Assembly: GCA_965660855.1 (NCBI GenBank)
Contig: CBFIBM010000003.1
Coordinates: 86,382-150,381 of the forward strand
Length of the DNA: 64,000 bases
Source of the DNA: an uncultured bacterium
GTDB taxonomy: Bacteria; Fidelibacterota; Marinisomatia; Marinisomatales; UBA1611
Reading direction: 5' to 3'
Shown: positions 41,995 to 64,000 of the stretch, piece by piece
How the letters are laid out: each line of letters begins with the position of its first letter
Position numbering within the stretch: position 1 is the first letter of the stretch
Notes under the pieces: model-generated
Seen by the model: the letters and a program-made list of their open reading frames with translations, nothing else
What the model was told of the DNA's origin: nothing
Databases searched by the model: none
Made by a program: the position numbers and the translations under genes

Positions 41995-42018
41995 TTTAGT
42001 TTTTGTGATACTAAATAT

Positions 42019-42101: not shown

Positions 42102-42102
42102 C

Positions 42103-42148
42103 AAAATTAGAAACCCTATTTATTTGAATAAATAGGGTTTCTAATTTT
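42103..42148. terminator. 22-bp perfect inverted repeat, probable bidirectional terminator
   Basis: AAAATTAGAAACCCTATTTATT(42103-42124)-tg-AATAAATAGGGTTTCTAATTTT(42127-42148). A-run on one side and T-run on the other. It lies between convergent transcription units. Confidence 0.65.
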
Positions 42149-42175
42149 TAAACCTATCGTAAAAATGTCGATTAA

Positions 42176-45100: not shown

Positions 45101-45556
45101 ATCATCATCAAACTTAGCATTTGGCCAACGAGCCATAATTTGTTCTTCCCAATTCACAAATAGTTGCCAAATATCCGATGTTAATTTTGTTCTCCATATA
45201 TTTGAAGATCCAACTTGAGTCCATGATGAGTTTATTGGTATGGTTCCATCCATTATTACTCTTTCATTATTGTAGTTTGTAAATATTATTGCAGACCCTG
45301 AAGAACCATTTAAATTATCGATAGTCACACTTTCATGATATCGACCTTGGCGTATATAACATATATCACCCGAATTCATTACGCTTGCTGCTTTGGAGAC
45401 AGTTTTAAAAGGCTTTGCAAGGGTAGTTCCATTATTCTCATCGTCACCATAAGAGATTGCAACGTAATAGTCAGTAGCTGATAGATGGGTGACGGCTACA
45501 GTAATATAAATAAGTTTTTGTATTGCTGGAGTCAATTTTCTAATCAAAAAAGACAT
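42176..45556 (-). CDS. giant secreted right-handed parallel beta-helix protein with type-A T9SS C-terminal sorting domain
   Basis: The N-terminus DYYVAISYGDDENNGTTLAKPFKTVSKAA..GDICYIRQGRYHE is typical of pectate-lyase-fold proteins. Repeated N/G-rich beta-helix rungs follow. The C-terminus (about 42179-42440) reads QNYPNPFNPTTTIQYDLP...IHDITGNEV...GMYFLSI. Confidence 0.65.
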   Translation of the reverse strand: MSFLIRKLTPAIQKLIYITVAVTHLSATDYYVAISYGDDENNGTTLAKPFKTVSKAASVMNSGDICYIRQGRYHESVTIDNLNGSSGSAIIFTNYNNERVIMDGTIPINSSWTQVGSSNIWRTKLTSDIWQLFVNWEEQIMARWPNAKFDDDTIWDNDNFWAKGTIDDDENAYSNGTIIDKPFTNSQGTNINLSSTGFDLDESNKQAIAILNLGSFRTWSRIVTNHSGGTFNYSTVPNWKTKHHYYYLEGRREFLDQSGEWWYDTHNNQDSLYYYTENGINPNKLEFRGKIQSYAFTITGSKYVQIKNLEFFATTVYFSNGDNCLVYGCNFMYPSCSKRMLRIVDTEPEMTKFASGSSGSTIRNCAFRNTDGTAVEMWGGTDTLDNCYFNKIDYSVADNSSIMLTIRMNGTSNVFRKNTVHKTGGSATVMIGNAGLIEYNNLYDTGHLQSDGSMIQFMEDQQDGAICRFNWLHDTEKYGARFDHSGSADGTNGIMHHNLAWNCESGGIMVKGNNHKIYNNTVLNSGSKNDIIVLKINNDDHSTSIIKNNAADKISNHRTNNVTIDFGTYSNNWNGYNESVTLNSVLTDTSNSDFSPAASSPLIDAGISIPGITDTYTNNGSSPDIGAYEDGNINWTAGHDWDLSSTFGNTWIPLHNITISGNSGFRMLSSPVSGTIFEDLLDELWIQGISGGDATDGNANIWILNLAQQSWTPITNISTQSLNAGQGFLIYVFNDIDFDGNNDLPVDLFLSGTQNTGSVSKSSIPQDNYYLAGNPFTKTISWNDISKNNLSNVISIWDNSTASWKMWNGSSGDLSNGLIAPFQGFWIQASGGIGSFTIEEEDIATGSSTLIRQRNDHEDSGKLTLSFSSNNYIDEVYLTFGINGNINSDISDGKKLLPLEISPRLVAMTLSNDIPLKINHLPLHHEESITIPLDILFLNIDSSGYFVTNETNATMSLLELSLPDHISISLLDNLIGNELDISNTSGLNLFIEPRGSFNPTTSEILKPYPIIGTSRYSLIIHYNLLNQNDYNGLPTKFELYQNYPNPFNPTTTIQYDLPLASYIEIAIHDITGNEVFKPLKEFKQAGQHKIIWNGLNDNGKPVPSGMYFLSIYSKEFSSSRKMIHLK

Positions 45557-48209: not shown

Positions 48210-49568
48210 ATGAAAGTAAAATATCTAATTTTATTCGTCCTTTACTTACTCATCAGTTCCTGTGAGGATGTTGAAGTTGCATACCCTGGAAATAATCAAT
48301 CTACCAGAGCTGTTGCTCCAAATGGTACTGCTGACTGGTTAATTGCGCAAGTGAATGGCGTTGGGCAATTACCCGAAAATTCAGCTGCAGGGATTGATAT
48401 AGCAACCTTGAATGCTGAAGATGAAAATCCAGATGATGAGTTTTCTTATTCGATTGCAAGTCAGACTATTGGCAATACTTCAGGTGATTATTTCAGAATT
48501 GAGAAAGAAGAAGATGGAGATTTTAAACTTGTTTTAAATAATAGTAGTATTAACTATGAATCTCTAAGCGGTGTAAAGGTAGTTACGATTAATATTTCAG
48601 TTGAGGATGATAGTCCTGATAAATTAAAAAGTGATTTTTCATTGGAAGTGGAAATAATTAATGTGAATGAGTCCCCTTATTTTATTAACCTAAGCTCAAT
48701 TACCCCTTTCGCTGATGAATATGTTGAATTTTCTTCTGGAAATTTAATTTGGGATGATATAGACGAAGGTGATAATCCAATTTTAAATACACAAGGTCCT
48801 GGCTGGTTAAATATAAGTAATGAAGGTTTGTTTAGTGGGTCACCCTCATCTTCAGATGTGGGTGTTAACTCATTTGTTTTGACCATTTCTGATGACGATA
48901 ATCCACCGATCTCTGTAAGTGAGGAAGTAAATATTGAAGTAAGAGAGAATGTCGCTCCAATTTTTGAAAACGCGCCCTCATCACTATCAATTAAGGTAGG
49001 TTGTTATGATACAAATGAAAGCATTGTAAATCTAAATTGGCGAGATCCAAATAATGATGCTCCATATTTTTCTGGTAATGATTTGGTTTCATTTAGTTTT
49101 AATGAAAATATCTCCTGGTTAAATATTTCTGATGATGGAAATATATTTTGTGTTGATGCTCCTCAAAATACAGATGCGGCTGTTTCTGAAATTGAAATTA
49201 CCATTGCTGACAATAGGCCGAGTAATCCAAAAAGCACAACAAAATCATTTGATGTTACAGTAATAGCAAATGATGCACCAAGTTTCACAAACCTTAATGG
49301 CTTTGCAGATGAAATGGATTCAGGTACAGAATATATCTTTGAATTGGAATATGATGATCCAAATGACGATCTTCTCGCATTTGAATTGAAGTTTGCTATT
49401 GGTAATAATGTATTTGATTCTGATCAATTAGGGTGGGTTAGTATTGATAATTCAGGAGAAATCACTCTAAGTCCAACATCGAGTAATGCTGGAGATTATA
49501 CGATCAGTTTTATTATTTCAGATGAATGCTTTGAAGTTTCAGAAGAAAAATCTTTTACAATTAGATAA
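48210..49568 (+). CDS. lipoprotein with one cadherin-like repeat and several He_PIG/dystroglycan-type Ig-like repeats
   Basis: Lipobox LLISSC. Cadherin-like LPENSAAGIDIATLNAEDENPDDEFSYSI...EVEIINVNESPYF. The Ig-like module WLNISNEGLFSGSPSSSDVGVNSFVLTISD is repeated. Confidence 0.6.
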   Translation: MKVKYLILFVLYLLISSCEDVEVAYPGNNQSTRAVAPNGTADWLIAQVNGVGQLPENSAAGIDIATLNAEDENPDDEFSYSIASQTIGNTSGDYFRIEKEEDGDFKLVLNNSSINYESLSGVKVVTINISVEDDSPDKLKSDFSLEVEIINVNESPYFINLSSITPFADEYVEFSSGNLIWDDIDEGDNPILNTQGPGWLNISNEGLFSGSPSSSDVGVNSFVLTISDDDNPPISVSEEVNIEVRENVAPIFENAPSSLSIKVGCYDTNESIVNLNWRDPNNDAPYFSGNDLVSFSFNENISWLNISDDGNIFCVDAPQNTDAAVSEIEITIADNRPSNPKSTTKSFDVTVIANDAPSFTNLNGFADEMDSGTEYIFELEYDDPNDDLLAFELKFAIGNNVFDSDQLGWVSIDNSGEITLSPTSSNAGDYTISFIISDECFEVSEEKSFTIR

Positions 49569-49588: not shown

Positions 49589-49987
49589 ATGAAGTTGAGA
49601 TCAGATATTAATGCAATGACCGCCCTTGTTTATGGAGGAGCAGCATTCTTACTTGTTATCGTAGGGTTTAGGTCTATTCTAGCAACATTAGGAGATCATG
49701 TTGGTGTGATGACTTACTTATCTATTGCTGCACTTGGTTTAGAATTTGTACTTTTAATTTTATACGCAAAGGCTATTTATAACTTGGGTCCAGATTCAGG
49801 TGAAAGTAAAGTCAGCGCTGGGGCAAGTGTTGCGAACATGGATAGTAAAGAGATATCAGAGTTAACCAAAGCAGTAATAAAAGTTGCTGAAATGGGCGAG
49901 GGTTTAGCAAATCTCTCAAATGGGAAAGTTCGTGATGAAGTGAAAAAAGAGGTTAATGATATTCTTTCGAAAGCAATTAAGAAATAG
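49589..49987 (+). CDS. 132-aa two-TM inner-membrane protein, GldL/PorL-like (tentative)
   Basis: ALVYGGAAFLLVIVGF...GVMTYLSIAALGLEFVLLILYA parallels the remembered GldL N-terminus FAYGMGAAVVIVGALF...GTVMLSIGLLTEALIFALSAF, including the TM2 Glu (E52, codon 49742-49744). The cytoplasmic tail is short and helical. Confidence 0.45.
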   Translation: MKLRSDINAMTALVYGGAAFLLVIVGFRSILATLGDHVGVMTYLSIAALGLEFVLLILYAKAIYNLGPDSGESKVSAGASVANMDSKEISELTKAVIKVAEMGEGLANLSNGKVRDEVKKEVNDILSKAIKK

Positions 49988-49996
49988 GTCTATAAA

Positions 49997-51436
49997 ATGA
50001 AAAAAGTAGAAGTCTATTTTCTAATCAATCTTGGTGCTATACTTAGCCTGTTTGCTATTGAAGGTGAGCTGTCTATTTATATGCAAAGACAAGATGATAT
50101 TTTAAAGAATGTTGCTCAAGATAAGCTTCAAACGCTTGTTGAAATAAGCAATGTTGAATCAAATTATGATGATTCCGATTATTACAGGTTATTTTTCGAT
50201 GTTGAAGGACAATATGAACAAGGTTCAATCGAGTTTAATCCTAGTTTTACTACTCCAATTGTAGAGGTTGATGGCGACTCGATAAAAGTAGATGATTCAT
50301 ATGTATGGGAATTGGATTCTGTTAATATCGAGCCTTATACAGAAGAGGGGGATAAAAATAGATATGTAGCTAAGGTCAAGCTTGCATCCATTGAGGATAA
50401 CTATCTAAATCAACCCTTTGATATAAACCTAGGTGTGAATTTCATTCCCGCTATTGACACTGTTACTTACGCAAAATGGACAAAGGCGTTTGGAGATTAC
50501 ACAGTTACAGACAAATTGTTGAAGATAATCGATGATGAAGTTTCCTCAAAAGGAAGCTTTGAAATGGAGAGGGAATTTGACACCCCGGTAACACTGATTT
50601 ATATGGATGGTCAGCAAGCAGAGTTTTTTGTTTTGTTTGATAAAGAAAAGTATACTGTGTTAAGAGGTTTGGATTGGGAGATTCCGTTCAGTATTGGTGG
50701 GGTGAATTCTGAAGCTGATTTTGATATTGAGATATCAAGTGGCAAAGATTTAGTAAAAGAGTCTCAACCAGGGTTGCCAAGATCATTTATCAAAGGTAAA
50801 GGTACGAGTGATGGAACTGTTGAAATTGTTGGGCTGAGGAAAAGAGATAAAAAATCTAGTATTACTAAGGCTAAGATAGTAGTAGTGGATCCACAGTATA
50901 GTTCTCCAACTGAAGACAAAGAAATTTACATTGGAGAGCAGTATGTTTTTGATAGCAGAGTTAAAGATGTAGACAGAGATAGAATTTCTGTGAAAATTTC
51001 TGGATCTGCGGTAAACTCAAAAACTTTTAACTCTTACGAAGCAAAATTAAAACCTAAAAGTCGAGGAAAAGTTAAATTCCAAACTTTTGTTGATGGGAAA
51101 GCTGTAAAAGGATTATTTCGTGAAGTTTCTGTAAAGAAAATTCCACCGCCTAAGCTTGAGTTTAAGCGTTTAGGAAAAGGATCAAATAATATGATGGTTA
51201 CAGTTACAACATATGGAAATAATAATGGTAAAAAAGCTGTAGTCCCTCTCTCTGGTATTTATGGAAAACTAGACGAAGAGCAAGCTGAAAAACGGGTTGG
51301 AAATCGAAGAGTTGTTAAATACAGCTTTGAAATGGACGAGCCACAATTTGGAACAACCACTGAGATAAGAATAAAAGTTGTGGATAAATATAAAGCAGAA
51401 ACTGTCTCAGACAATGAATTTGAATATTATGATTAA
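49997..51436 (+). CDS. bitopic protein (N-terminal TM plus ~440-aa periplasmic Ig-like domains), GldM/PorM-like (tentative)
   Basis: Start is 9 nt after the GldL-like gene. The TM YFLINLGAILSLFAIEGEL can be compared with GldM MINLMYLVFIAMLALNVS. The late motif FREVSVKKIPPPKLEF resembles the GldM C-terminal F.V..iP.P motif. Confidence 0.4.
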   Translation: MKKVEVYFLINLGAILSLFAIEGELSIYMQRQDDILKNVAQDKLQTLVEISNVESNYDDSDYYRLFFDVEGQYEQGSIEFNPSFTTPIVEVDGDSIKVDDSYVWELDSVNIEPYTEEGDKNRYVAKVKLASIEDNYLNQPFDINLGVNFIPAIDTVTYAKWTKAFGDYTVTDKLLKIIDDEVSSKGSFEMEREFDTPVTLIYMDGQQAEFFVLFDKEKYTVLRGLDWEIPFSIGGVNSEADFDIEISSGKDLVKESQPGLPRSFIKGKGTSDGTVEIVGLRKRDKKSSITKAKIVVVDPQYSSPTEDKEIYIGEQYVFDSRVKDVDRDRISVKISGSAVNSKTFNSYEAKLKPKSRGKVKFQTFVDGKAVKGLFREVSVKKIPPPKLEFKRLGKGSNNMMVTVTTYGNNNGKKAVVPLSGIYGKLDEEQAEKRVGNRRVVKYSFEMDEPQFGTTTEIRIKVVDKYKAETVSDNEFEYYD

Positions 51437-53174
51437 AAAACACCATATTTCTACTCTCTTATTTTTAAGTAGCACTCTATTATTTGGTCAAAAATCAATC
51501 TACTGGGAAGTAGCTGATCCTGTTGTGAACAGCGAGTTCATCGAATCTTATATTAATAGATTGATTGAGGTTGATAAATTTGAGCAAAATACCATTCAAG
51601 CTTCTCATACAATCATTGTCCAAATGGATATTGAAAATGATAAAATTAGTTTAGAAAAACTCAAAGCTAAAAATTATCAAATGGGAGAGTACCAATCTTT
51701 TGATATGGAAGAAATTGAAAAGATGGATCCTGTCCAGATTAATACATTAATGTCGCGAGAGTACAAGTGGAAAGATGTAAGTCGAAGAGATTTGTCTGAG
51801 TTAGAAGCTTTTAGTACTGTAGATAATGTATTTCAAGAGCGTAGTTTTAAAGATGCTAGAGATGCATTTTGGTGGTCGAATTCTCAAATAAGCGTCAGTA
51901 CTGCTCAGAAGGTTTTTATTAGACAGAAAAGTAATAGTCTTGCATTTCGTTTGGAGAAGGGTTTTCTTGACCTTGGACTGTCAAGAGAATTGTCTGAAAA
52001 TTTGATTTTAGGCATTTCAAATGATGTTGTGAGCTCATATCTCATTATACCTGGAGCAACTAATTCTACAGCTATGGGTATTGGGCATCCTTTAGAAGGA
52101 AATTTAGGCTTTGGCTTTAAGTTTGACACTCATACTCTTGGTGGTCAGGTTAACTATATGGATGTCGATGGTCAGGATTATGACTATTCAAAAGTTTTTA
52201 GCAGAAAACATTTGGTGATCCCATCAAGTAGTGGACTATTATATTGGAGCAATACTTTCCAAATTAATAGAAATGTTGATTCCAAGTATGGTAATAAAGT
52301 TAAAGATCAAAAAAAAGAAAAAGCCAAAGCAGAAAAAGCAATCTCGAAATCTAGAGAATGGAATACTGGATCAGACAAATTTAATGGAGTATTTCAGGTA
52401 ATGGAAGAAGAGACTGTTACTTTTATTGTTGATAGAGATAATAAAGCACACAAGTTAGCAGAAAAGGGTAAAGAGTGGACGACAAAATCAGGAAGTGTTG
52501 TTAAAGCAGTTTTAACAAATAGAAACCCCAAAGAGATTACCCTGTTAAGAGCAAAGGATAATTTTAAAATTGTACTAAAATTAAGAGATCTATCCGAAGA
52601 GGATCAATCTTTTGTTGAAAGTTTAAAGTGGGATGGTAAAAAAACAAAAACTCTATCTATTGAGCAACTAAATCCCTCCGATCAACAGCTTATTAGAGCA
52701 GCGACAGGGACTGTGAAGGCAAGAAGCGGTAAAGGTCGTGAGCTAAAAGTCAGTGAACCATTTGCTTCAATGCGGTTGAAAGCAGGTCTTGCATTTACTC
52801 AATTTGTTCACGCTAGAGTTTTTGAAGATAATTTAGTATCGGTAATTGATCGTACGTCTGGCTCTAATTCATTAGGGTTTTATGCAAAAGTTGAGGGAGT
52901 GACAGATAGTAAAAGCTCCAAAGGGTATATCCAAGTAAATGTAGCAGGTAATGGATTTAAGGCATACGGGTTGGGTTTAGAGCATAATGTATGGAAAATG
53001 GTTAATTTAGGAGTGGATTTGACTCTTTACCCTGATAACAGTTTTATCGAATTTAAAAATGATCGAAATAATCCAGAAGATAAATGGAGATGGTATCCAG
53101 GGAGTCGCCCAGATGAAAATGGAAAGGGCGGAGGAACTCTTTTCTTTTCTCCTTATATTACTGTGAACTTCTAA
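51429..53174 (+). CDS. secreted probable outer-membrane beta-barrel protein with internal tandem SHD1-like domains
   Basis: ATG 51429 (ATGA-type overlap with the upstream stop) gives signal peptide MIKKHHISTLLFLSSTLLFGQ. C-terminal beta-signal LFFSPYITVNF. 52353-52625 encodes REWNTGSDKFNGVF... and KEWTTKSGSVVKAVL...IVLKLRDLSEEDQSFVESL. Confidence 0.5.
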   Translation: MIKKHHISTLLFLSSTLLFGQKSIYWEVADPVVNSEFIESYINRLIEVDKFEQNTIQASHTIIVQMDIENDKISLEKLKAKNYQMGEYQSFDMEEIEKMDPVQINTLMSREYKWKDVSRRDLSELEAFSTVDNVFQERSFKDARDAFWWSNSQISVSTAQKVFIRQKSNSLAFRLEKGFLDLGLSRELSENLILGISNDVVSSYLIIPGATNSTAMGIGHPLEGNLGFGFKFDTHTLGGQVNYMDVDGQDYDYSKVFSRKHLVIPSSSGLLYWSNTFQINRNVDSKYGNKVKDQKKEKAKAEKAISKSREWNTGSDKFNGVFQVMEEETVTFIVDRDNKAHKLAEKGKEWTTKSGSVVKAVLTNRNPKEITLLRAKDNFKIVLKLRDLSEEDQSFVESLKWDGKKTKTLSIEQLNPSDQQLIRAATGTVKARSGKGRELKVSEPFASMRLKAGLAFTQFVHARVFEDNLVSVIDRTSGSNSLGFYAKVEGVTDSKSSKGYIQVNVAGNGFKAYGLGLEHNVWKMVNLGVDLTLYPDNSFIEFKNDRNNPEDKWRWYPGSRPDENGKGGGTLFFSPYITVNF

Positions 53175-53187
53175 AAACGGAACTTAT

Positions 53188-55506
53188 ATGACTCTAGTAT
53201 TTAAATATTTTACAATTTTAGCTTTTTCATCAACGCTTATTTTTAGTCAAAATGAGTTAAAATTAAAAAAAGACAAAGCGCAGGTTACCGAGGATGAAAG
53301 CATTAAAATAGATGTCTTAAAAAATGACGGAATTAAAGATAAAAGTAACCTAATAATTAAGATTGAAAAACAAGCTCAAAAAGGAGTTGCCGTACTATCT
53401 GGGAAAATGATCGAGTATACCCCCAATAGTAATGAAAGTGGATCAGATAGTTTTACATACTCAGTTGATATTGGTACTGGAGCTGGTACAGCTGAAGTCT
53501 CTGTCAAAATTAAATCAGTAAATGATGAACCCACCGGACTTAGTCTTTCTAGTAAGACAATTAAAGAAAATAAACCTGAAGGGACATTAATTGGTAAGCT
53601 AATTGTTGATGATCCAGATATGAATGATACTTTCAACTTTGGTCTATCTAGAGATAGTAAAGCAGATTTTCGAATTGATGGTGAAAAGTTACTTTCAAAA
53701 AGATCATTTGATTATGAGGAGCAAAGTAAATATAATTTATCAATACAAGTATCAGACGCAGCAGGTGAATCTAATGTTTTTGATATAGCAGTGAATATTG
53801 AAAATGAAAATGAAGCTCCAAAACTCATTGGGGATAAAGACTTAAACATTAATCACCCGGAAGATGCGGGAAAAATTGTGGCAAGAATTCAAGTAGAAGA
53901 CCCTGATTCTGACCAATCGGGTCTTAAATACAAGCTTACTAAGAGTCTAGATAAGGAACATTTTAAAATCACTCGTAGTGGCGATATCTCATTTTTAAAA
54001 GAGCCGGATTTTGAAAACCCAAAAGATAAAAATAAAAATAATACTTATAATGTTTCATACAAAGTAACAGATAGTAAAGACCCTTCCCTTTCCATTGAAG
54101 GAGAAGTTACTATTAATCTTCTTGATGCTGAGGAAACAGAAGTTAAGGCTTTGGACAAAAGGAAATTTATTGCTTGGTCTGTAGATCATCAACCATATCA
54201 CATTTTGATGGAAGAAGCCGTAGAGGATTATTTGAAATTAAAATATTCTGATGATTCTATTGATGAGGCAGTTGATGATGGATATGGTGCTAGTATTCAG
54301 GAACTAAAGCCAACAGATCAAATTATTATTGTTCAGCAAAAAGGTAATAATAGTGAAATTTATGAAATTTGGTATGGTAACGGATTAGACTATACCATAA
54401 TCGATAGAGAAAAAGTGGATTGGATTTTTAGTCAGGATATACAATCTGTTCTTGTCACAAAAGATCAATATCTTAATAGTGATTCAGAGACAGTATTTCA
54501 TAAAAGTGAAAGTGATAGATTGATGGCTAGCTATGGAAATGAATTTTCTGTCTGGCACTCCAATAATTTCAAAATGTCACTTGCTTCCTTTTCTATGAGA
54601 TCGAATTTATTGCAATACGCATCTAATATGCGTGTAGGAAATAAATTAATAGGAATTCCAGGTGAGCTTGGTGCAGGGGCAGAATTTGGTATTGCGACAC
54701 AACGATCAGAATTTGGTTTTCGATTGCCAATTTCATTTGATTTTGCAACATCTAATTCTGATGGTATTGATTTACCAGAAGCTGATAATTTAGGGTTGTA
54801 TGCACGTGGAAATATTGAAAATTTATTTTCAACTAATACTGATTTTCATGGATTGATTGGGTTTTCTTTTTATTCACCAAGTGTTGGTAATGTTTTAAGT
54901 TCCCCTAAAGATTTAGAAAGTGACAGTACAAAGTGGGGGGCTATAAACGACTCCACTGAAAATATTAATATTTTAGATAGCTATGCTTTATTTGGTGCGA
55001 CTGTTCAAGTTCCAGTAAATGCACCTTTTATTGGTCGCTTAACCGCAACACCGGGTATTCATTACATAAAGATAGCCCACCGTTTAAAAGATAAGCGCTA
55101 TTCAGCAGATGATGACTTGTATGAAAGGCTTTATTATAATCAAATGTTTGAGCAAAATGATAGTACTTTGACTTTCAATTCAGAAAAATTAAATGATGAA
55201 AATGAATCTTTTACATCTCTATCATCTTTTTACTTACGATTTGATCTACTAGGGAAAATAGGGGAAAAGCCTAACGTAATTGAGAGATTATCATTCTTGG
55301 ATTTCATTAAAATTTCCAATGTCCCTTTTTATGAGGTTTCATTACAGTTTATTCCCGGTTTTAATACAATCAGCACACTGAATGTGAATTTCTCAGACCA
55401 ATTTGGCATGTCTTTGACACGTTTGTCTTCCGATGATGCATTAAAAGGAAATTGGATGCCAGAATCAAAACTTTGGTTTGGATTTAATTATCGTGCTAAT
55501 TTTTAA
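53188..55506 (+). CDS. secreted protein: bacterial cadherin-like repeats fused to a probable C-terminal outer-membrane beta-barrel
   Basis: Signal peptide. IDVLKNDG...YTPNSNESGSDSFTYSV. Two cadherin repeats end in VNDEP and ENEAP. The C-terminal ~440 aa show alternating strands and end in LWFGFNYRANF. Confidence 0.5.
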   Translation: MTLVFKYFTILAFSSTLIFSQNELKLKKDKAQVTEDESIKIDVLKNDGIKDKSNLIIKIEKQAQKGVAVLSGKMIEYTPNSNESGSDSFTYSVDIGTGAGTAEVSVKIKSVNDEPTGLSLSSKTIKENKPEGTLIGKLIVDDPDMNDTFNFGLSRDSKADFRIDGEKLLSKRSFDYEEQSKYNLSIQVSDAAGESNVFDIAVNIENENEAPKLIGDKDLNINHPEDAGKIVARIQVEDPDSDQSGLKYKLTKSLDKEHFKITRSGDISFLKEPDFENPKDKNKNNTYNVSYKVTDSKDPSLSIEGEVTINLLDAEETEVKALDKRKFIAWSVDHQPYHILMEEAVEDYLKLKYSDDSIDEAVDDGYGASIQELKPTDQIIIVQQKGNNSEIYEIWYGNGLDYTIIDREKVDWIFSQDIQSVLVTKDQYLNSDSETVFHKSESDRLMASYGNEFSVWHSNNFKMSLASFSMRSNLLQYASNMRVGNKLIGIPGELGAGAEFGIATQRSEFGFRLPISFDFATSNSDGIDLPEADNLGLYARGNIENLFSTNTDFHGLIGFSFYSPSVGNVLSSPKDLESDSTKWGAINDSTENINILDSYALFGATVQVPVNAPFIGRLTATPGIHYIKIAHRLKDKRYSADDDLYERLYYNQMFEQNDSTLTFNSEKLNDENESFTSLSSFYLRFDLLGKIGEKPNVIERLSFLDFIKISNVPFYEVSLQFIPGFNTISTLNVNFSDQFGMSLTRLSSDDALKGNWMPESKLWFGFNYRANF

Positions 55507-55577: not shown

Positions 55578-58250
55578 ATGCTTTTTAGAACTTGTTACAT
55601 AATACTTTTTCTTTTTTCTTTACTTAATGCACAAACATCTATTCTTGACTCTAAAGAGCTTGGTATTACAAAACCTAAGAAGCTCATAGAAGCAATTCTT
55701 GGTGATAATATTGAGGCTCCAGGTGGATCTGCAGTTATCCTAGATGCTTCAAAATCAAGGCCTAACAATGGATCCTTGACCTTCGAGTGGTCTTTTCCTG
55801 AGAATCTTATTTTTGAAGATGATTATGAATATGATAAATCCCAAACAGTAATAACTTATTCATCTGAAGAATTAAAAGAGGTTCCTTTTCAAAATAAAAC
55901 TAGTATTAAAACACTTGTTACTAGAAATCAATATATAGAATTAGACCTTCCAAATTATACAACAGCTAAAACTTTTTCAATTATTCTCAAAGTTCAAAAC
56001 CATGTAGGTATGAAAGACTTTGATACATTATTTGTTAATCTAATACCTCCTATTAAAACTAGCTTACAAGTGGTTGATGTTGGAGATGAATATTTATCCA
56101 TTCAGGATAGCTCTGAGTCCGTTGGAGTCGAGTTAACAGAAACTATAATAGATGAATCGTTACTATCTATACAACCAATTAATAAAAATTTATTTAAACC
56201 AAGAGAAATTGATTTGATTAACTCTCTTATTTTTAATGAGATTAAAAACAAAGGATTTGATAATGTTTTAAATCCAAATAGGTACATATCAGAAGAGATA
56301 AAATTAAATAGACTTTATGAAAGATTTAAAATTGTTAAGGATACTGTAATAACTGAAAATAATCCTAGTGCACCAGCTGGACCATCTCTTATCCAAAAAA
56401 TCCAAAGTTTTTTTATTAAAGATAAAAATAATGATTCCCTAAAAACCACAACAACAGAAGATACATTAAATATTGTAATAAAAGGAAAAGATGACTCTAA
56501 TCTTGAAGTCGTATTAGCTGATGAAGAGGATCCTGATCTAAAAATAGATTCATTAAGTAATGACTCAACTGTAGTAACAGACTCAATCAATACGGAAAAT
56601 TTATTTAGCCTAGGGTTTTTTAAGTCCTTTTTTCAAAAATTTTCTAAAAAACAGGAAAATAATGTTATCTTAAAAGATAGTACCTCTTTAATTGTCGATG
56701 ATTCTTCCGTTGTTAAAAATATTACAAATAATGATATTCCTGTAACGGATATATCAGAAGAACTAAATAAAACCATTGAATATGATTCATCCCTTGTTTC
56801 AGCTGTTACCTATGATACCACTATTGTTGTAGACACACTGAAATATAATGTGGTCGTGGACACAACACTTTTCTATAATTTTTCCTGTGCCTCAGACTCT
56901 TGTGCAGGAGAAAATGCAATTTTAGAAGGAGCTGGTAAAGTTTTAACTTGGGGTCTAAACGATGATTCTGAGTTGGAGTTCCGTTATTTCTCAGTAGCAA
57001 ATCTTTTTAACGAAGATGTTCATTTTGATTGGGTAATCAGCAATGTCCAATTAAACCCTAGCTCAAAAGAAAAAATAATTTATCCAACCACTCTAGCAAC
57101 AAGTATCACTGGTAGTCTTTTTGTCGGAGAAGCAAACTCAAATAATATATTAGAAATAACAAAAGACCAGAATGCTCAAATAGTTGTAGAAGGGAATATT
57201 TTGAATGAAGAGCTTTCAAAACCATCAGGAATGGAAATAGGTTCAAACCAGGAAATATATTTTTCTGATAAATATAATAATAGAATTCTAATTAATTCTG
57301 GAGAAAGCTTCAGAACTCTTGTCAACAGTAAGAGTAAGTATAATAATCAAGATAACTCTTCTCCAATGGACCCTTCTTCAGTACGAATAGGACCAAATGG
57401 AGCAGTTTATGTATTATTCGATAAAGATGGATCGGTTTATAAGATTGCTAAAAGAGAAATTAGCACTATTCTAAATCCTAATTTACTAGATGGGATTGAT
57501 GATTTTGCGATTAATTCAAAAGGTGAAATTTTCATTTTAAGTACTGAAATGAAAAAAATCTATAAAATCATCAATAAAAATGAAATTATAACTATAGCTG
57601 GTTTAGACCGTCCTGATAAGAATAGAAAAATATATATGAAGAGGAAAGGTCCTAATTCTTTGAGCTTTTCAGGAACTGCATTAGAACCTGCTCTTATGAA
57701 TGATGTTCCTTCAAAAAAAATTCCATTTGGAAACCCTGTTAGTATTGATATTGATTTAAATGATAATCTTTACATTGCAGATGATGAATATGGAACCATT
57801 AGGAGAATTGATAAAGAGGGTACAATAAGCACATTTTTTGGGCCTAGCGATGAATTAAAAGGTGTTTCTCAAATTAGACTAACAAATGAAGAAAATTTTC
57901 AGATATATATTTCAAAACCATTTGCCCATGAATTAAAAAAGATTAGTTTGAGTGAAATTTCTCCATGGGTTAAAAAATCAACCATTGATCACCCTAGGTA
58001 TATAATTCAAGAAAAGGGTGTTTATGGACTTGAGGATCAATTAAATGAATCTCTCTCGTTCACATTAGATGAGATCTTACCAAAAGTAAGAAAAACGTTT
58101 TTGGAGCGAATTAGTAATCAAAATAAAAAGGTTACTAAATTTATGGGAAAGAATCCACTTTTCTGTGGTCTTTTATTACTACTTGTGAATCAAGGTGTCG
58201 CAGCTAGCCTTGAAGATCCACCTAAATTACCTCCAGATTTTCCATTTTAA
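55578..58250 (+). CDS. secreted PKD-like plus NHL-repeat beta-propeller protein with C-terminal hydrophobic anchor
   Basis: Signal peptide. APGGSAVILDASKSRPNNGSLTFEWSF (PKD-like). A low-complexity S/T/D/N linker. NHL-like blades (PSGMEIGSNQEIYFSDKYNNRIL, PVSIDIDLNDNLYIADDEYGTIRRI). The C-terminus reads PLFCGLLLLLVNQGVAASLEDPPKLPPDFPF. Confidence 0.5.
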   Translation: MLFRTCYIILFLFSLLNAQTSILDSKELGITKPKKLIEAILGDNIEAPGGSAVILDASKSRPNNGSLTFEWSFPENLIFEDDYEYDKSQTVITYSSEELKEVPFQNKTSIKTLVTRNQYIELDLPNYTTAKTFSIILKVQNHVGMKDFDTLFVNLIPPIKTSLQVVDVGDEYLSIQDSSESVGVELTETIIDESLLSIQPINKNLFKPREIDLINSLIFNEIKNKGFDNVLNPNRYISEEIKLNRLYERFKIVKDTVITENNPSAPAGPSLIQKIQSFFIKDKNNDSLKTTTTEDTLNIVIKGKDDSNLEVVLADEEDPDLKIDSLSNDSTVVTDSINTENLFSLGFFKSFFQKFSKKQENNVILKDSTSLIVDDSSVVKNITNNDIPVTDISEELNKTIEYDSSLVSAVTYDTTIVVDTLKYNVVVDTTLFYNFSCASDSCAGENAILEGAGKVLTWGLNDDSELEFRYFSVANLFNEDVHFDWVISNVQLNPSSKEKIIYPTTLATSITGSLFVGEANSNNILEITKDQNAQIVVEGNILNEELSKPSGMEIGSNQEIYFSDKYNNRILINSGESFRTLVNSKSKYNNQDNSSPMDPSSVRIGPNGAVYVLFDKDGSVYKIAKREISTILNPNLLDGIDDFAINSKGEIFILSTEMKKIYKIINKNEIITIAGLDRPDKNRKIYMKRKGPNSLSFSGTALEPALMNDVPSKKIPFGNPVSIDIDLNDNLYIADDEYGTIRRIDKEGTISTFFGPSDELKGVSQIRLTNEENFQIYISKPFAHELKKISLSEISPWVKKSTIDHPRYIIQEKGVYGLEDQLNESLSFTLDEILPKVRKTFLERISNQNKKVTKFMGKNPLFCGLLLLLVNQGVAASLEDPPKLPPDFPF

Positions 58251-58298: not shown

Positions 58299-61200
58299 AT
58301 GAATAAGCTCTTATTAATATTTGTTTTATTTACCTATGTCCTTAACGGGCAAAAATATAAAACTAATAATCAAAGTTTATTTAATTCAAAAAATAAAATA
58401 AATACAGCCGAAACTTTAAGTTCTACAGTTCCAAGGTTGCTATCCTATCAAGGCCTCTTAACAAAAACAGATGGCAAAGCAATCAAGGATGGTAGTATAG
58501 AGGTAACTTTTAGGTTATATACATCTTTGGAAGAAGGGGTTCATTTTTGGGAAGAGGTGCAAAATGTTGTTATCGAAGATGGTATCCTCACTGCTGTTTT
58601 AGGAAAGATTATACCAATAGATATCGTTCCTGATGCATCTTTTTTAGAAGTAGAAATAAATGGTACAGTTCTTTCACCTCGCCAAGAAATGACTTCTTCA
58701 TTTTATTCTATTATCTCAGATACTTCAAAATACTCCCAAGGTGGAAATTATTTGGATCTTGATGGTTTACCAGATTTAAATATTTTTGCAAGGAAAGATA
58801 CTCTTAGCAATTACACCCTAATAGATAGCCTTAATCCAGTTGCTTTGAGTGGGGATTATCTTGATTTAGAAAATGTTCCTGATTTATCAGAAGTTCTTCA
58901 AAGTGACACACTTGATTTATACGTGATGATAGATAGCCTTAATTCGTATGTTCTTCAATCAAGTTTAAGTATAGTTGCTTTTTCAAATGACTATTCAGAT
59001 TTAAATAATATTCCTGACCTTAATCAATATGCGACAAAGGATACTTTGACTAATTTCATTTCAGAAGACACCTTATCCTTCTATGCTTTGAACACAGAAT
59101 TAGGTTCTATTGCATTGCAAGATACTAATAATGTTAATATTACAGGTGGATCCATTTCTGGTGTTTCTGATATTTCGGTTGCAGATGGAGGTACAGGCGC
59201 TTCTGATATAGCTACTGCGAGAGAAAATTTAGGTCTTGAAATTGGTACAGATGTTCAAGGATACGATGCAGATCTAGCAGATCTAGCAGACGGTTCCTTA
59301 TCAGCATCAAAAGTACAATTTTTAGAAAATATTAGTTCCGATGTTCAAGAGCAAATTAATAATTTAGGTTTAAACAGTTTAATGGACCTTGGTGTGGTCG
59401 CTGACTCCTCTGAGTTAAATTTTGTTGATGGAGTTACATCAAATATTCAAACTCAATTAGATAATAAACAAGAAATAAACTCGAACCTTACCTCGATAGT
59501 CAATCTAGATCAAACAGATGGAAATTTCATTGTGTCTGATGGAAATAACTGGACGGTTGAAAACGGAGCAGATGCGAGGGCATCCTTGAATTTAGGTTCA
59601 ATGTCGACTCAACAATCAGATAATGTCACAATCTCGGGTGGAAGAGTGACGGGCATATTAGACATTGCGATTGCAGACGGGGGAACTGGCGCATCAGATA
59701 TCGCTACGGCAAGAGAAAATTTAGGACTCCAAATTGGTGCTGATATTCAAGGCTATGATGCTGACCTTGCTGATATATCAAGTTTATCGCAAGCTGAGGG
59801 TAACATCATTGTTTCCAATGGGAGTAATTGGACCGCCGAATCTGGTTCTGATGCTAGAGAATCTCTTGGATTATCTATAGGGAGTGATATCCAAGGCTAT
59901 GATGCAGATTTAGAAGATTTAGCAGATGGAACCCTATCTTCTAGTAAAATAGAGAATAATGAATACTTTATTACATCCTCAGGAAATGCCAATGAGGTTT
60001 GGACTTCTGATGGAAGCGGAGCAGGAACATGGGCCACTTCTACCAATACCCTCACAGGAGCAGGGTCTACAATAGATACAGAGGATTTATCAGCATCTCA
60101 AGCGGTGGTTACGGATAGTGATGGCAAAATAGCGGTATCAGATGTAACGGTCACTGAATTAAATTATGTGGATGGAGTAACATCAAGCATCCAGGCTCAA
60201 TTAGATGCAAAACAATTAGCTGATTCTGATTTAGATGATTTAGCTGTATTACCTCAAAGTAATGGTAATATTATCGTCTCGGATGGAAGTAATTGGACTG
60301 CCGAATCTGGTTCTGATGCTAGGGAATCTCTTGGATTATCTATAGGGAGCGATGTTCAGGGTTATGATGCTGATTTAACAGATTTAGCAGATGGAACCCT
60401 GTCTGCTAGTAAAGTAGAGAACAATGAGTATTTTATTACATCTCCTGGTAACGCTGGTGAAGTATGGATTTCAGATGGTTCTGGTGCAGGTGAATGGGGT
60501 CTATCAGCAGGCATAACCGGAGCCGCATCTACCGTGGATACGGAAGATTTGACAGGGAAGAGAACGCTTATATCAAATATTGATGGTAAAATTGCAATAT
60601 CTGACATTACATCCCAAGAACTAGGTTATTTAGATGATGTATCAAGTAATGTACAAACTCAATTAGATGGTAAACAGCCTTTGAATTCTAACTTAACAGA
60701 CTTAGTTGGATTAACTCAAAGTGATGGGAATTTTATTATTTCTGATGGAGTAAATTGGACTGTAGAAAAGGGAGCAGATGCCCGGGCATCTTTGGGGTTA
60801 GGCTCTTTATCTACACAAGAATCTAGTGCCGTAGCTATTACTGGGGGTTCTATAGCCGGTATTGCAGATATTACCATTTCTGATGGTGGAACTGGAGCTT
60901 CAGATATAGCAACTGCAAGGGAAAATTTAGGGCTTGAAATTGGAACAGATATTCAAGGTTACGATGCAGACCTAGCAGACCTAGCAGATGGAACTCTATC
61001 CGCAAGTAAAGTTGAAAATAATGAATACTTTATTACTTCTTCAGGCTCAGCGAATGAGGTGTGGACATCCGATGGAAGTGGTGCTGGAACATGGGCCACT
61101 TCTACAAACGCCCTCACTGGAGCGGGATCTACGATAGATACAGAAAATTTATCAGCATCTGTAGTTGTAGTTACAGATAGTAATGGTAAAATAGCAGTAT

Positions 61201-63443
61201 CAGATGTTACAGCAGCAGAACTTAATTATGTAGATGGAGTTACCTCCAACATCCAGACTCAGTTAGATGCAAAGGGAACAGGAATGGTTAGCTCTTTATC
61301 AGACTTGAGTGTTACTTCCACAGCAACAGAGTTAAATCTTTTAGATGGGGTAACTTCTACAACATCAGAGCTAAATATTTTAGATGGGGTAACCGCCACA
61401 GCAGCAGAACTTAATTATGTAGATGGAGTTACCTCCAACATCCAGACTCAGTTAGATGCAAAGGGAACAGGAACGGTTAGCTCTTTATCAGACTTGAGTG
61501 TTACTTCCACAGCAACAGAGTTAAATCTTTTAGATGGTGTATCTGGATTAGTTCAAGGAGACCTTACAAAGTTAGCAGCGGTTGACGCCACAGCAGCAGA
61601 ACTGAATTATGTGGATGGAGTTACCTCCAACATTCAGACTCAACTAGATGCGAAGGGAACAGGAACGGTTAGCTCTTTATCCGACTTGAGTATTACCTCC
61701 ACAGCGACAGAGTTAAATATATTAGATGGTGTTACTTCTACTACTGGAGAGTTAAATATTCTTGATGGGGTAACCGCCACAGCAGCAGAGCTTAATTATG
61801 TAGATGGAGTTACCTCCAACATCCAGACTCAGTTAGATGCGAAGGGTACAGGAACAGTTAGCTCTTTATCCGACTTGAGTGTTACTTCCACAGCGACAGA
61901 GTTAAATATATTAGATGGTGTTACTTCTACTACTGGAGAGTTAAATATTCTTGATGGGGTAACCGCCACAGCAGCAGAGCTTAATTATGTAGATGGAGTT
62001 ACCTCCAACATCCAGACTCAGTTAGATGCGAAATCTTCTATAACAGGACTTGATGGTCTTACGGATGTTAAATCAGGTGGAAGTAATTTTTCAAATTCGA
62101 TGATTGTTGGACATCAAACAACAGGTACACTTAACAATGCAGATGAAAATATTGGACTAGGTGTTGGATCCCTTGAATCGCTTACCTCTGGTGATAGAAA
62201 TACTGCTATCGGGAAAGATGCAATGAATAGTAACACTGATGGTAATTATAACACTAGTTCTGGATATCAAAGCTTATATGTCAATACTACTGGTAGTTTT
62301 AATCTGGCATCAGGAAATTCAGCATTGGGGCTAAATATTGATGGAGATTCAAACACGGGTTTAGGGCATAGAGCATTAAATAGTAATACAAGTGGAGACT
62401 TAAATATTGGAGTTGGTCGAAGATCATTATATTCAACAACCACAAGTAATTATAATTCAGCAATTGGCTCTTATGCTTTAGAAGATGCCAACAGGACAGC
62501 AGATACGGATGGTTATAATACTGCACTTGGGTATAAAGCTGGTAACACAGGAACTAACGACGTAACGACAGGGAATAAGAATACTCTATTAGGAGCAAAT
62601 ACTGCCTCTTCAGCCGCAGCAGGAACCAATCAGACGGTTATTGGTTACGGTGCGTCCGGTACAGCGAATAATAGTGTTACGATTGGTAATAGTGATGTAA
62701 CAGCATGGTATCCAGGTTCAGATAATACTGCAGATTTAGGTAGTAGCTCAGTTGAATTCAAAGATTTGTATATAGATGGTACTGCAAACTTAGATGCAGT
62801 TGATATTGATGGAGGTGCGATTGATGGTGCTGCTATAGGAGCAAATTCAGCATCAACGGGAGTATTCACAACCGTTACAGCAAGTACTTCTTTGGATGTT
62901 ACAGGTTCAGCAGGTGTGATATTAGAGAATGATGAAACTATTACAAATTCAAGTGATGGAACGGTTTTGGTTACAGCAACTACCACTTCTTTAAGTGGCG
63001 ACTTAACTGTCACAGGAAATGACATAACTTTTGGTAACGGAGAGACAATTTCTAACTCGACAGATGGAACGGTAGTTGTTACAGCAACTACCATTGAATT
63101 GTCCGGGAAAACTGACTTTGGTGATAATGCAATTACGGGTTATGGAGCAGATTTACAAACATTATCTGGAACTACAAAAACTCTTGCTGCAACTGACAAT
63201 GGAACTGTGATTGTATGTTCTAGTGGTTCCGCGACAACGATTACTGTCGCTTCTGGTGCAAGTTTACCTGCTGGATTTAATTGTATGATTGTTCAAAGTG
63301 GCGCAGGCCAGGTGACATTTAGTGGATCAGGTACTACCTTAAATGCGAGGAATGGTTTAAAGACTGCAGGACAATATGCAATGATGACATTAGTTCATCT
63401 TGGAAGTAATGTTTTTGTTATTTCAGGGGATACGACTCTTTAG
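58299..63443 (+). CDS. 1714-aa repetitive tail-fibre-like surface protein
   Basis: Signal peptide. N-terminal module LLSYQGLLTKTDGKAIKDGSIEVTFRLY...HFWEE. DY.DL.N.PDL motifs. Three copies of DGGTGASDIATARENLGL. Many ELNYVDGVTSNIQTQLDAK units. YadA-head-like NT.IG/NTA.G repeats. No T9SS type-A or type-B C-terminal domain recognised. Confidence 0.6.
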   Translation: MNKLLLIFVLFTYVLNGQKYKTNNQSLFNSKNKINTAETLSSTVPRLLSYQGLLTKTDGKAIKDGSIEVTFRLYTSLEEGVHFWEEVQNVVIEDGILTAVLGKIIPIDIVPDASFLEVEINGTVLSPRQEMTSSFYSIISDTSKYSQGGNYLDLDGLPDLNIFARKDTLSNYTLIDSLNPVALSGDYLDLENVPDLSEVLQSDTLDLYVMIDSLNSYVLQSSLSIVAFSNDYSDLNNIPDLNQYATKDTLTNFISEDTLSFYALNTELGSIALQDTNNVNITGGSISGVSDISVADGGTGASDIATARENLGLEIGTDVQGYDADLADLADGSLSASKVQFLENISSDVQEQINNLGLNSLMDLGVVADSSELNFVDGVTSNIQTQLDNKQEINSNLTSIVNLDQTDGNFIVSDGNNWTVENGADARASLNLGSMSTQQSDNVTISGGRVTGILDIAIADGGTGASDIATARENLGLQIGADIQGYDADLADISSLSQAEGNIIVSNGSNWTAESGSDARESLGLSIGSDIQGYDADLEDLADGTLSSSKIENNEYFITSSGNANEVWTSDGSGAGTWATSTNTLTGAGSTIDTEDLSASQAVVTDSDGKIAVSDVTVTELNYVDGVTSSIQAQLDAKQLADSDLDDLAVLPQSNGNIIVSDGSNWTAESGSDARESLGLSIGSDVQGYDADLTDLADGTLSASKVENNEYFITSPGNAGEVWISDGSGAGEWGLSAGITGAASTVDTEDLTGKRTLISNIDGKIAISDITSQELGYLDDVSSNVQTQLDGKQPLNSNLTDLVGLTQSDGNFIISDGVNWTVEKGADARASLGLGSLSTQESSAVAITGGSIAGIADITISDGGTGASDIATARENLGLEIGTDIQGYDADLADLADGTLSASKVENNEYFITSSGSANEVWTSDGSGAGTWATSTNALTGAGSTIDTENLSASVVVVTDSNGKIAVSDVTAAELNYVDGVTSNIQTQLDAKGTGMVSSLSDLSVTSTATELNLLDGVTSTTSELNILDGVTATAAELNYVDGVTSNIQTQLDAKGTGTVSSLSDLSVTSTATELNLLDGVSGLVQGDLTKLAAVDATAAELNYVDGVTSNIQTQLDAKGTGTVSSLSDLSITSTATELNILDGVTSTTGELNILDGVTATAAELNYVDGVTSNIQTQLDAKGTGTVSSLSDLSVTSTATELNILDGVTSTTGELNILDGVTATAAELNYVDGVTSNIQTQLDAKSSITGLDGLTDVKSGGSNFSNSMIVGHQTTGTLNNADENIGLGVGSLESLTSGDRNTAIGKDAMNSNTDGNYNTSSGYQSLYVNTTGSFNLASGNSALGLNIDGDSNTGLGHRALNSNTSGDLNIGVGRRSLYSTTTSNYNSAIGSYALEDANRTADTDGYNTALGYKAGNTGTNDVTTGNKNTLLGANTASSAAAGTNQTVIGYGASGTANNSVTIGNSDVTAWYPGSDNTADLGSSSVEFKDLYIDGTANLDAVDIDGGAIDGAAIGANSASTGVFTTVTASTSLDVTGSAGVILENDETITNSSDGTVLVTATTTSLSGDLTVTGNDITFGNGETISNSTDGTVVVTATTIELSGKTDFGDNAITGYGADLQTLSGTTKTLAATDNGTVIVCSSGSATTITVASGASLPAGFNCMIVQSGAGQVTFSGSGTTLNARNGLKTAGQYAMMTLVHLGSNVFVISGDTTL
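61209..62035 (+). repeat. in-frame tandem repeat, ~189-bp (63-64 aa) unit, about 4.3 copies, near-identical DNA
   Basis: Unit starts (ACAGCAGCAGA[AG]CT.AATTATGT.GATGGAGTTACCTCCAAC) at 61209, 61398, 61590, 61779 and 61968. Copies 4 and 5 are identical over the readable overlap. Copies 1 and 2 differ by 1 nt in the first ~140 nt. Confidence 0.9.
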
Positions 63444-63451: not shown

Positions 63452-64000
63452 ATGTACTTTTTCTTTAAAAATCATATAATAAAGTTTCTTTTCACCTCTA
63501 TAATTTTATTTGCTCAAGATTATGATTTGAAAACATTTCAATTTTCTCTTACCAATGAAATAATGGAGTCACAAGATTTAAAACTAAAAGGTTCGATTAG
63601 TTCAAACCTTTTTAGCACTAGTAGCAGCGATTCTATTTCTCTAAAAGGCGGGGTTATAAGTTCAGCATTAGGCTTATATTCAGAACCACCCAAACTTATT
63701 ACCTTTTTTCCTGATACAATAACGCAATCTGATCCTAATGTTGCACGTGCAATTGCGACTGATTTAAATGGAATACAAAGTACAAATTTGTATATACAAA
63801 TTGGTGGAAGTAAGAGAACTTTAAAACTTCCTATGGCGGTGGTTAATGATTCTATTTTTGAAGTACATATCCCAGAAAGCCTAATGACTGTTCGAAATTT
63901 TAGAACATATTTTGAGAGTGTTGATAGTATGGACTATTCCAGTTCTAGCGATTATAATACCCCATATTTAACCATTCCACAAAATGGTTTAAATATGGAA
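63452..64000 (+). CDS. 5' part of a secreted hypothetical protein (runs off the window)
   Basis: ATG 63452 is 8 nt after the fibre gene stop, and the frame is open to base 64000 (183 codons). Signal-like N-terminus MYFFFKNHIIKFLFTSIILFAQ. Not in the ORF track because no stop lies in the window. Confidence 0.5.
   Translation, partial: MYFFFKNHIIKFLFTSIILFAQDYDLKTFQFSLTNEIMESQDLKLKGSISSNLFSTSSSDSISLKGGVISSALGLYSEPPKLITFFPDTITQSDPNVARAIATDLNGIQSTNLYIQIGGSKRTLKLPMAVVNDSIFEVHIPESLMTVRNFRTYFESVDSMDYSSSSDYNTPYLTIPQNGLNME

Follow-up and report, generated by a model that had tools for sequence, protein, structure and literature searches.

A probable MAT-like cell-surface fibre with a phage-type shaft and tip at a fixed chromosomal locus of Marinimicrobia (SAR406)

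The stretch of DNA analysed here, referred to below as the window, comprises 64,000 nucleotides (nt) of a contig from an uncultured bacterium (CBFIBM010000003.1), and close to its end it contains an open reading frame (ORF) that runs uninterrupted from ATG to stop at positions 58299-63443 of the forward strand and encodes a protein of 1714 amino acids (aa). A preliminary description, made from the letters alone, had read this protein as a giant tail-fibre-like product with nested repeats, lying in a cellular envelope operon and devoid of a recognisable tag for the type IX secretion system (T9SS). The locus raises the question of whether the gene is viral or cellular and, if cellular, to which kind of structure its product belongs. 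We consider it likely that the gene encodes a chromosomal, non-viral, MAT-like cell-surface fibre of a Marinimicrobia (SAR406) bacterium. The mosaic adhesive trimers (MATs) of Bdellovibrio begin with a signal peptide, after which come a conserved N-domain rich in beta structure (~130 aa), the fibre proper and an exchangeable tip that may or may not contain an S74 domain. Fibres of this type are reported to be present in bacteria other than Bdellovibrio, 'predatory and otherwise' (Caulton et al. 2024, PMC10769870). The protein analysed here belongs with these already described fibres; its nested repeat shaft is unusually elaborate, and it has a conserved phage-type tip and a fixed genomic partnership.

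The N-terminus of the protein recalls the MAT design. Its first 17 residues (MNKLLLIFVLFTYVLNG; 58299..58349, forward strand) read as a Sec-type signal peptide that is likely to be cleaved by signal peptidase just before Gln18, and the G/A-Q junction is kept in the fibre orthologues. Glutamine at position +1 (the 'Q-rule') is typical for signal peptidase I substrates of the Bacteroidota. The MAT-like N-domain (aa 44-146, VPRLLSYQGLLT...SDTSKY; 58428..58736, forward strand) provides the sole NCBIfam match of the entire fibre, which is to Bdello_MAT_N (NF053851; E 3.3e-5 with the full protein as query, 1.2e-6 with the isolated domain). The N-domains of 11 out of 13 diverse family members match this same model and nothing else (best E 1.6e-8), and the model is also matched by six of six N-domains of the type found in Bacteroidota/Cytophagia ('APQGFNYQAIVRD...'; best E 1.4e-12). 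Direct comparison of the Marinimicrobia and Bacteroidota/Cytophagia types yields an hhalign probability of 88.6% (E 2.6e-6, 90 columns); a search for further homologues with the N-domain profile returned short fragments only and added nothing. We take these profile matches to suggest that the Marinimicrobia, Bacteroidota-type and Bdellovibrio MAT N-domains form one superfamily, rather than that the protein is a member of the Bdellovibrio subfamily, and the MAT-like N-domain is presumed to be the cell-proximal anchor. It is followed by three repeats of ~40 aa with a D/NY.DL...PDL motif (58737..59093, forward strand), located by regular expression at aa 150, 186 and 231, in a region that shows 57-63% identity in orthologues. 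The preliminary description had listed three DY.DL.N.PDL motifs here; there are indeed three copies, the first of which, NYLDLDGLPDL, fits that pattern only loosely.

The shaft begins with nested super-repeats (59094..61208, forward strand), delineated by the DNA repeat families D2, D4 and D5 and by PHROG 24210, that combine the modules NWT/DAR.SLGL, ISGG...DGGTGASDIATARENLGL, QGYDADL..LADGTLS and ENNEYFITS...ELNYVDGVTS. At the DNA level, a 278-nt repeat family recurs at 59756, 60221 and 60818 (spacings of 465 and 597 nt, with 78% and 60% identity), the two members of a 300-nt pair at 59852 and 60914 are 78% identical and a 56-nt element coding for ELNYVDGVTS is present in eight copies. The corresponding protein units of 155 aa begin near aa 505, 660 and 814, and the longer spacing of 597 nt is due to a 44-aa insertion, holding a GGTGA module, in the third of them. 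The 465-bp super-repeat originally placed at 59826 and 60291 is in register with the 278-nt family, and the three copies of DGGTGASDIATARENLGL counted at that time are found at aa 296, 460 and 862. A further expansion, which the preliminary description had not spelled out, is a tandem array in which a 189-nt (63-aa) unit is present 4.3 times (61209..62032, forward strand; Tandem Repeats Finder period 189, 88% matches, score 1262), every unit of which contains three ELN..DGVT submotifs. Altogether, the fibre carries 15 ELNxxDGV(T/S), five QGYDADL and three ENNEYFITS motifs, and the ELN expansion is lineage-specific, with 12 copies in P0067 and 0-4 in most orthologues. Repeats of this length with 60-88% identity at the DNA level far exceed what chance would produce. 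The repeat region of the fibre also shows the highest G+C content of the window (0.41 at 60001-62000, against 0.27-0.35 elsewhere), which could stem from a composition rich in Gly, Ala, Thr and Ser or from a foreign (phage) origin of the modules.

Both sections of the shaft have counterparts in phage virions. PHROG 24210 (tail fiber protein) matches the super-repeats (7e-21) and PHROG 16122 (virion structural protein) matches the 63-aa array (3e-30), while tblastn matched 90 genomes of isolated phages, in genes annotated as tail fibre or minor tail or left unannotated, with hosts among Rhizobium, Octadecabacter, Roseobacter, Pelagibacter, Prochlorococcus, Synechococcus and Mycobacterium. The super-repeats are matched in the tail fiber of Rhizobium phage RHph_N3_19 and in Pelagibacter phage HTVC106P, and the 63-aa array in the tail fiber of an Octadecabacter virus, in Prochlorococcus phage P-RSP2 and in minor tail proteins of mycobacteriophages. 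Moreover, a metagenomic homologue (P0115, E 6e-72) is encoded on 75-kb phage contigs beside a Gp23-type capsid gene. A direct PDB sequence search with the fibre gave no match, and the Pfam matches to Salt_tol_Pase, E3_UFM1_ligase and HHH_3, which are weak and fall on the ELN repeats, were rejected as repeat artefacts.

Beyond the array, residues ~1290-1470 (62166..62708, forward strand) are predicted by AlphaFold2 (AF2) to fold into a YadA-head-like beta-roll of 17-residue G..NTA.G..AL..NT repeats, the monomer model showing one strand per 17 residues with predicted local distance difference test (pLDDT) values of 80-89. The block of short repeats that had first been likened to YadA heads (NTAIG, NTSSG, NTGLG, NTALG) lies within it, at aa 1301-1407. 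Precomputed matches to PF05658 (YadA_head) exist for two fibre orthologues and the Pfam YadA_head model finds no match in this fibre itself; a Foldseek search against BFVD pairs the region with an 'FhaB-like adhesion protein' of Bodo saltans virus (root mean square deviation 3.1 Å, 178 columns). The adjoining pre-tip region (SSVEFKDLYIDG...; 62709..63104, forward strand) contains a duplicated 36-aa unit (ENDETITNS.DGTV.VTATT; direct repeat D6, copies at 62934 and 63042), varies in presence among orthologues and is modelled by AF2 with low confidence.

The protein ends in a tip of the phage tail-fibre C-terminus type (aa 1603-1714; 63105..63443, forward strand, stop codon included), the sequence of which had been quoted correctly in the earlier account and which is non-S74. 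These last 112 aa have tblastn matches in 152 phage records and, in the phage proteins checked, the match falls at the extreme C-terminus: it extends to the final residues both in gp29 of Gordonia phage Tolls, a minor tail protein (1e-7), and in a tail fiber protein of Stenotrophomonas phage BUCT609 (2e-3). The tip domain is present as well at 12 IMG/VR loci, on one contig of which it closes a 225-aa protein located after head genes, and a Foldseek comparison with viral models agrees with a phage-type tip. Because shaft and tip alike match phage proteins, through PHROG, tblastn and the C-terminal matches, the resemblance to tail fibres noted from the outset amounts to homology and not to a likeness of motifs alone.

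Within the best 120 homologues, on which our survey of the family is based, 68 possess both the N-domain motif and the tip motif, and the fibre has therefore at least 68 orthologues. These measure 1229-1920 aa and differ in their module counts, with NTA.G repeats numbering 0-20, so that a comparison of repeat copy number across relatives, as proposed at the start, does reveal variation. The best-conserved parts are the N-terminal 290 aa (51-63% identity) and the tip (59-73% identity in orthologues). More distant relatives keep the shaft modules but have a Peptidase_S74 (PF13884) end, as do the S74-type MATs, or phage-type N-termini.

The genomic setting of the fibre gene is that of a bacterial chromosome. 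The best fibre homologue, with 88% identity, comes from a Candidatus Marinimicrobia genome, the closest relatives belong to Marinimicrobia throughout, the syntenic contigs of GTDB genomes are from Neomarinimicrobiota and a metagenome contig (L008) encodes a protein 100% identical to one encoded in the neighbourhood of the fibre. The host is a Candidatus Marinimicrobia (SAR406; Neomarinimicrobiota) bacterium, and not a member of the Bacteroidota. Marinimicrobia are an uncultured group that abounds in oxygen-minimum zones and the dark ocean. Apart from the fibre, the window contains ordinary chromosomal genes (SecDF, ParAB, F-type ATP synthase, AspRS, PhoH, thiolase and SecA), together with two T9SS cargo proteins that carry Por_Secre_tail according to Pfam. 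The window ends 557 nt past the fibre gene and the downstream DNA was therefore examined in syntenic contigs, where the genes found 3' of the fibre (L001, L103/L104, L107 and L108) code for a T9SS cargo protein of ~610 aa, Big_12/FG-GAP/LamG giants, Hc1 and cytochrome oxidase. No phage gene was detected in the 58 kb upstream of the fibre or in the 10 kb downstream of it in five syntenic loci. The absence of other phage genes from the window, which holds housekeeping and envelope genes only, is accordingly confirmed. Phage genes immediately downstream had been named as the observation that would make the gene a prophage tail fibre; since the syntenic downstream genes include none, the cellular setting stands and the fibre gene is not a prophage gene.

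The closest described relative of this protein is the non-S74 subgroup of the Bdellovibrio bacteriovorus MATs. Both are chromosomally encoded, both start with a signal peptide, their N-domains show partial similarity at the level of hidden Markov models, below the cut-off of the MAT model, and both have a long shaft of phage-tail-fibre type and a modular tip lacking S74. On the other hand, Bdellovibrio is a predator, whereas the host considered here is a free-living marine heterotroph from a different phylum, and its fibre, in which nested and tandem repeats have expanded, is ~1.7 times longer. Tips are swapped among the Bdellovibrio MATs but conserved in the Marinimicrobia family, and the single fibre gene, which occupies a fixed locus next to the genes for an NHL protein and a four-gene envelope module, contrasts with the 21-member paralogue family of Bdellovibrio. 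The fibres of Bacteroidota/Cytophagia (P0079-P0095) have a homologous N-domain of a different subtype, defined by APQGFNYQAIVRD, and shaft modules in common with the Marinimicrobia fibre (E 1e-248 to 1e-100). The same tip occurs in P0079 and a few others (such as P0083, P0085 and P0087), some of these fibres carry Peptidase_S74, many are named 'tail fiber domain-containing protein' by NCBI and they are not linked to the Marinimicrobia module (L102). Finally, the fibres and minor tail proteins of tailed phages (for instance RHph_N3_19, Tolls gp29, BUCT609 and HTVC106P) share the modules GGTGA...AR.NLGL, QGYDADL and ELN..DGVT as well as the tip, but their genes lie among virion genes and their products lack both signal peptide and MAT-like N-domain, whereas the protein described here is cellular and much longer.

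By analogy with the work on MATs and with phage fibres, from which its trimeric state, surface localisation, adhesive binding and partnership with the adjacent NHL protein (g890) are extrapolated, the fibre may be pictured as follows. The Sec signal peptide would lead the protein across the inner membrane, and a separate route would serve for crossing the outer membrane. The MAT-like N-domain (aa 44-146) would then retain the fibre at the cell surface, possibly via g890, with the shaft of phage-tail-fibre modules (155-aa super-repeats, 63-aa array and 17-residue beta-roll), presumably trimeric, projecting outward and the C-terminal 112-aa tip binding a ligand carried by particles or by other cells. 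Lineages would come to differ in fibre length as modules are duplicated and lost. Marinimicrobia thus maintain, at one unchanging place in the chromosome, a conserved fibre of phage-tail-fibre type that varies in length, and the MAT-type design would be extended from predatory Bdellovibrio to a free-living marine phylum. The modules held in common with the fibres of marine phages clearly illustrate that parts are exchanged between phage fibres and adhesins of cells. A search of the literature found no paper linking SAR406/Marinimicrobia with the T9SS or with such fibres.

Several observations weigh against the assignment as a MAT-like surface fibre. The Bdello_MAT_N score, of 24-28 bits, lies below the curated cut-off of 60 and the alignment spans only profile positions ~9-74 of 162 (~60 residues); owing to this low score and partial coverage of the profile, homology over the whole N-domain is not proven. 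For the C-terminal 425 aa, AF2 yields a poor monomer model, with a mean pLDDT of 58. In addition, the tip is conserved here, whereas it is the variable part in MATs and phages, and for this reason the tip may possibly have a conserved role in assembly, as a chaperone or in anchoring. Lastly, no route across the outer membrane was identified and no secretion tag was found, in agreement with the earlier remark on export and anchoring.

Candidates for such a route and for an anchor are nonetheless suggested by the genes that precede the fibre. The order TPR/HTH membrane protein - g452 - g132 - g479 - g598 - g772 - g890 (NHL) - fibre - T9SS cargo is kept in all Marinimicrobia loci of sufficient length. 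The gene next to the fibre, g890 (55578..58250, forward strand), codes for a secreted protein with NHL repeats (Pfam TEN_NHL and NHL) and is separated from it by 48 nt. When loci with enough sequence are counted, g890 is present at all of the 20 that bear the fibre and at none of the 12 that do not, and this co-occurrence makes fibre and g890 a two-gene unit that is always located behind the module. The two genes are co-inherited and probably co-transcribed; intergenic gaps of 8-71 nt on a single strand fit an operon, and a scan for promoters and terminators gave counts equal to shuffled expectation and was uninformative. In one comparison across loci, g452 shows 37-60% identity, g890 32-56% and the fibre ~50%. 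If the fibre has a partner for anchoring or assembly, g890 is the best candidate.

Two further observations concern g890. Its C-terminal 45 aa are strongly conserved (as compared in L001, L005, L014, L020, L030-L032, L035, L040, L049 and L060) and run from basic residues through NP-LLFGLLLLLLNQG-SAAL to a terminal SDGG.IDLPPDFPF, that is, a hydrophobic stretch followed by DLPPDFPF. The order of basic residues, hydrophobic stretch and motif is the reverse of that in sorting signals of PEP-CTERM type, and no NCBIfam sorting-domain model matches the g890 C-terminus. In P0090 and P0092, two relatives with the Bacteroidota-type MAT-like N-domain, NHL repeats (PF01436) are located inside the fibre protein itself; a BLAST comparison of g890 with both proteins found nothing significant.

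Upstream of g890 lies the envelope module formed by g132, g479, g598 and g772 (49589..55506, forward strand), defined by synteny across loci L001-L087, whose identity among loci (73-89% for g132 and g479, 69-82% for g598 and 57-76% for g772) is above that of the fibre. The g132 product has two transmembrane (TM) helices, the second of which contains an invariant Glu, and that of g479, a member of a small family (~100 representative clusters among 1.84 billion proteins), is modelled by AF2 (mean pLDDT 86) with a TM helix of 46 residues at its N-terminus and a string of four beta-sandwich domains behind it. The products of g598 and g772 end in ...PYITVNF and ...FGFNYRANF, respectively, which resemble the beta-signal of outer membrane proteins (OMP), and judging from this C-terminal motif alone both are putative outer-membrane barrels. 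The g772 protein begins with cadherin repeats, which are missing from a lineage of ~40% identity. Apart from cadherin repeats, the module proteins match no family in Pfam, NCBIfam or PDB, and PDB comparison of the g598 and g772 profiles returned cadherin repeats only. As listed, g598 starts at a TTG that lies within g479, giving an overlap of 59 nt (51378-51436); since its orthologues begin at an internal Met (MNLNIM... or MI...), the true start is probably a little downstream. The two-TM topology and conserved Glu of g132 had suggested that g132 and g479 might be GldL/GldM-like. This idea was rejected as homology: the g132 family gives an hhalign probability of 0.18% against the TM region of GldL (from authentic PDB GldL sequences), the g132 and g479 profiles retrieve no GldL, PorL, GldM or PorM from PDB, Pfam and NCBIfam are likewise negative and Foldseek relates the AF2 model of g479 to generic multi-Ig proteins only. 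What remains is only a loose architectural analogy.

It may be asked, as a supplement to the MAT-like fibre proposed here rather than as a substitute for it, whether the fibre is the cargo of a dedicated envelope machine that exports and/or anchors it; such a machine would be composed of g132 in the inner membrane, the bitopic g479 with its four beta-sandwich domains in the periplasm, the putative outer-membrane barrels g598 and g772, and g890. In 20 of 20 fibre loci the fibre gene immediately follows the module and g890, shares their strand and is separated from them by short gaps; this regular position speaks for such a machine, as does the higher conservation of the module relative to the fibre. 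The modelled g479 protein could in principle span the periplasm, and the terminal Phe and alternating hydrophobic pattern of g598 and g772 would suit components of the outer membrane. However, the module stands without the fibre in 12 loci, where it is followed by T9SS cargo of ~1,070-1,100 aa or by unrelated genes, and MAT-like fibres of other phyla do without the module (L102), one Bacteroidota-type relative (P0088) being chromosomal and lacking all four genes. Nor do Pfam, NCBIfam or PDB profile searches relate the module proteins to a secretion component already known, the comparisons of g132 with GldL and of g479 by Foldseek included. Taking both sides together, we hold a dedicated machine to be rather unlikely. 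The fuller proposal, based on synteny, that fibre, g890 and the four genes represent an undescribed envelope-spanning system of Marinimicrobia that exports and anchors phage-fibre-like adhesins without a T9SS tag seems more doubtful still; if true, it would offer a first handle on how MAT-type fibres get to the cell surface. Both g890 and the four-gene module are concrete candidate partners for the export and anchoring of tag-less fibres.

The T9SS itself would be another conceivable exporter, the ~110 aa at the C-terminus then being an unrecognised sorting domain. The presence of two Por_Secre_tail cargo genes at 38644-45556 shows that the host has a working T9SS, and T9SS cargo is also encoded downstream of the fibre in syntenic loci. 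Moreover, for a fibre tip the C-terminus shows unusual conservation, and it is beta-rich and of a size like that of a T9SS C-terminal domain (CTD). Against this, neither Por_Secre_tail nor a type-B CTD was found in the fibre (Pfam E<=1, NCBIfam E<=0.01; models PF18962 and TIGR04183 for type A and TIGR04131 for type B), even though the same Pfam search detects PF18962 in two nearby proteins, and the lack of a T9SS tag stated initially is thus upheld. The search for a PorP/SprF-like partner that had been suggested was negative, PF11751 being absent from all cluster proteins at E<=10. Furthermore, the same C-terminal domain ends phage proteins from hosts that lack a T9SS, namely Gordonia (Actinobacteria), Rhizobium, Ruegeria and Stenotrophomonas. 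We therefore deem it improbable that the fibre is a T9SS substrate.

A tail-fibre gene belonging to a prophage, a phage remnant or a tailocin-like particle would explain the strong homology of shaft and tip to phage fibres, and would be in line with the metagenomic homologue encoded beside a capsid gene. It is, nevertheless, highly improbable, given the surroundings free of phage genes on both sides, the Sec signal peptide and MAT-like N-domain that phage homologues are missing, and a locus that is fixed across Marinimicrobia lineages in which the cluster proteins are only 50-88% identical. Least probable of all is a trimeric autotransporter adhesin of the YadA family, since its likeness to the fibre, which lies in the fibrous design, the NTA.G head-like repeats of the predicted beta-roll and the PF05658 matches of two orthologues, is set against a repeat period of 17 residues instead of the 14 of YadA heads and a C-terminus that is a phage-type tip, with no Pfam match to YadA_anchor or any other C-terminal membrane barrel, nor to another substantial domain, in the fibre; on these sequence features the type Vc route is effectively excluded.

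The remaining genes of the cluster flank the module and the fibre. The first of them, g452 (48210..49568, forward strand), encodes a predicted lipoprotein (lipobox LISSC) with He_PIG and cadherin-like domains in Pfam, and is the variable member of the cluster, with 27-64% identity across loci. Upstream of it, a membrane-bound TPR protein (46267..48096, forward strand; TPR by Pfam) has one TM helix and a C-terminal helix-turn-helix (HTH) read from the sequence (...IAQLFGLTVRAIENKRYRLRKKL); its gene is kept directly upstream of the cluster in L103, L107 and L108, and with its LuxR/GerE-like HTH the protein is a possible regulator of the cluster. On the other side of the fibre, a gene that begins 8 nt past the fibre stop and is cut by the window end (63452..64000, forward strand) is probably an orthologue of the ~610-aa T9SS cargo gene, the gene at the same position in L001, L103 and L108 having FlgD_ig and Por_Secre_tail domains. 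In L107, from one Marinimicrobia lineage, a second large ORF (14003-17854; 1283 aa, no Pfam match) lies directly 3' of the fibre gene and may be a second fibre paralogue.

Two minor observations concern the rest of the window. Two convergent genes located shortly before the cluster (38644-41994, forward strand, and 42176-45556, reverse strand) encode T9SS cargo proteins of ~1,120 aa that both combine FlgD_ig with Por_Secre_tail, and one of these proteins additionally contains a right-handed beta-helix. Finally, a protein encoded at 1717-3147 joins a secretory lipase (LIP) domain to a C-terminal type I dockerin domain, a kind of domain that is unusual outside the cellulosome-forming Firmicutes.

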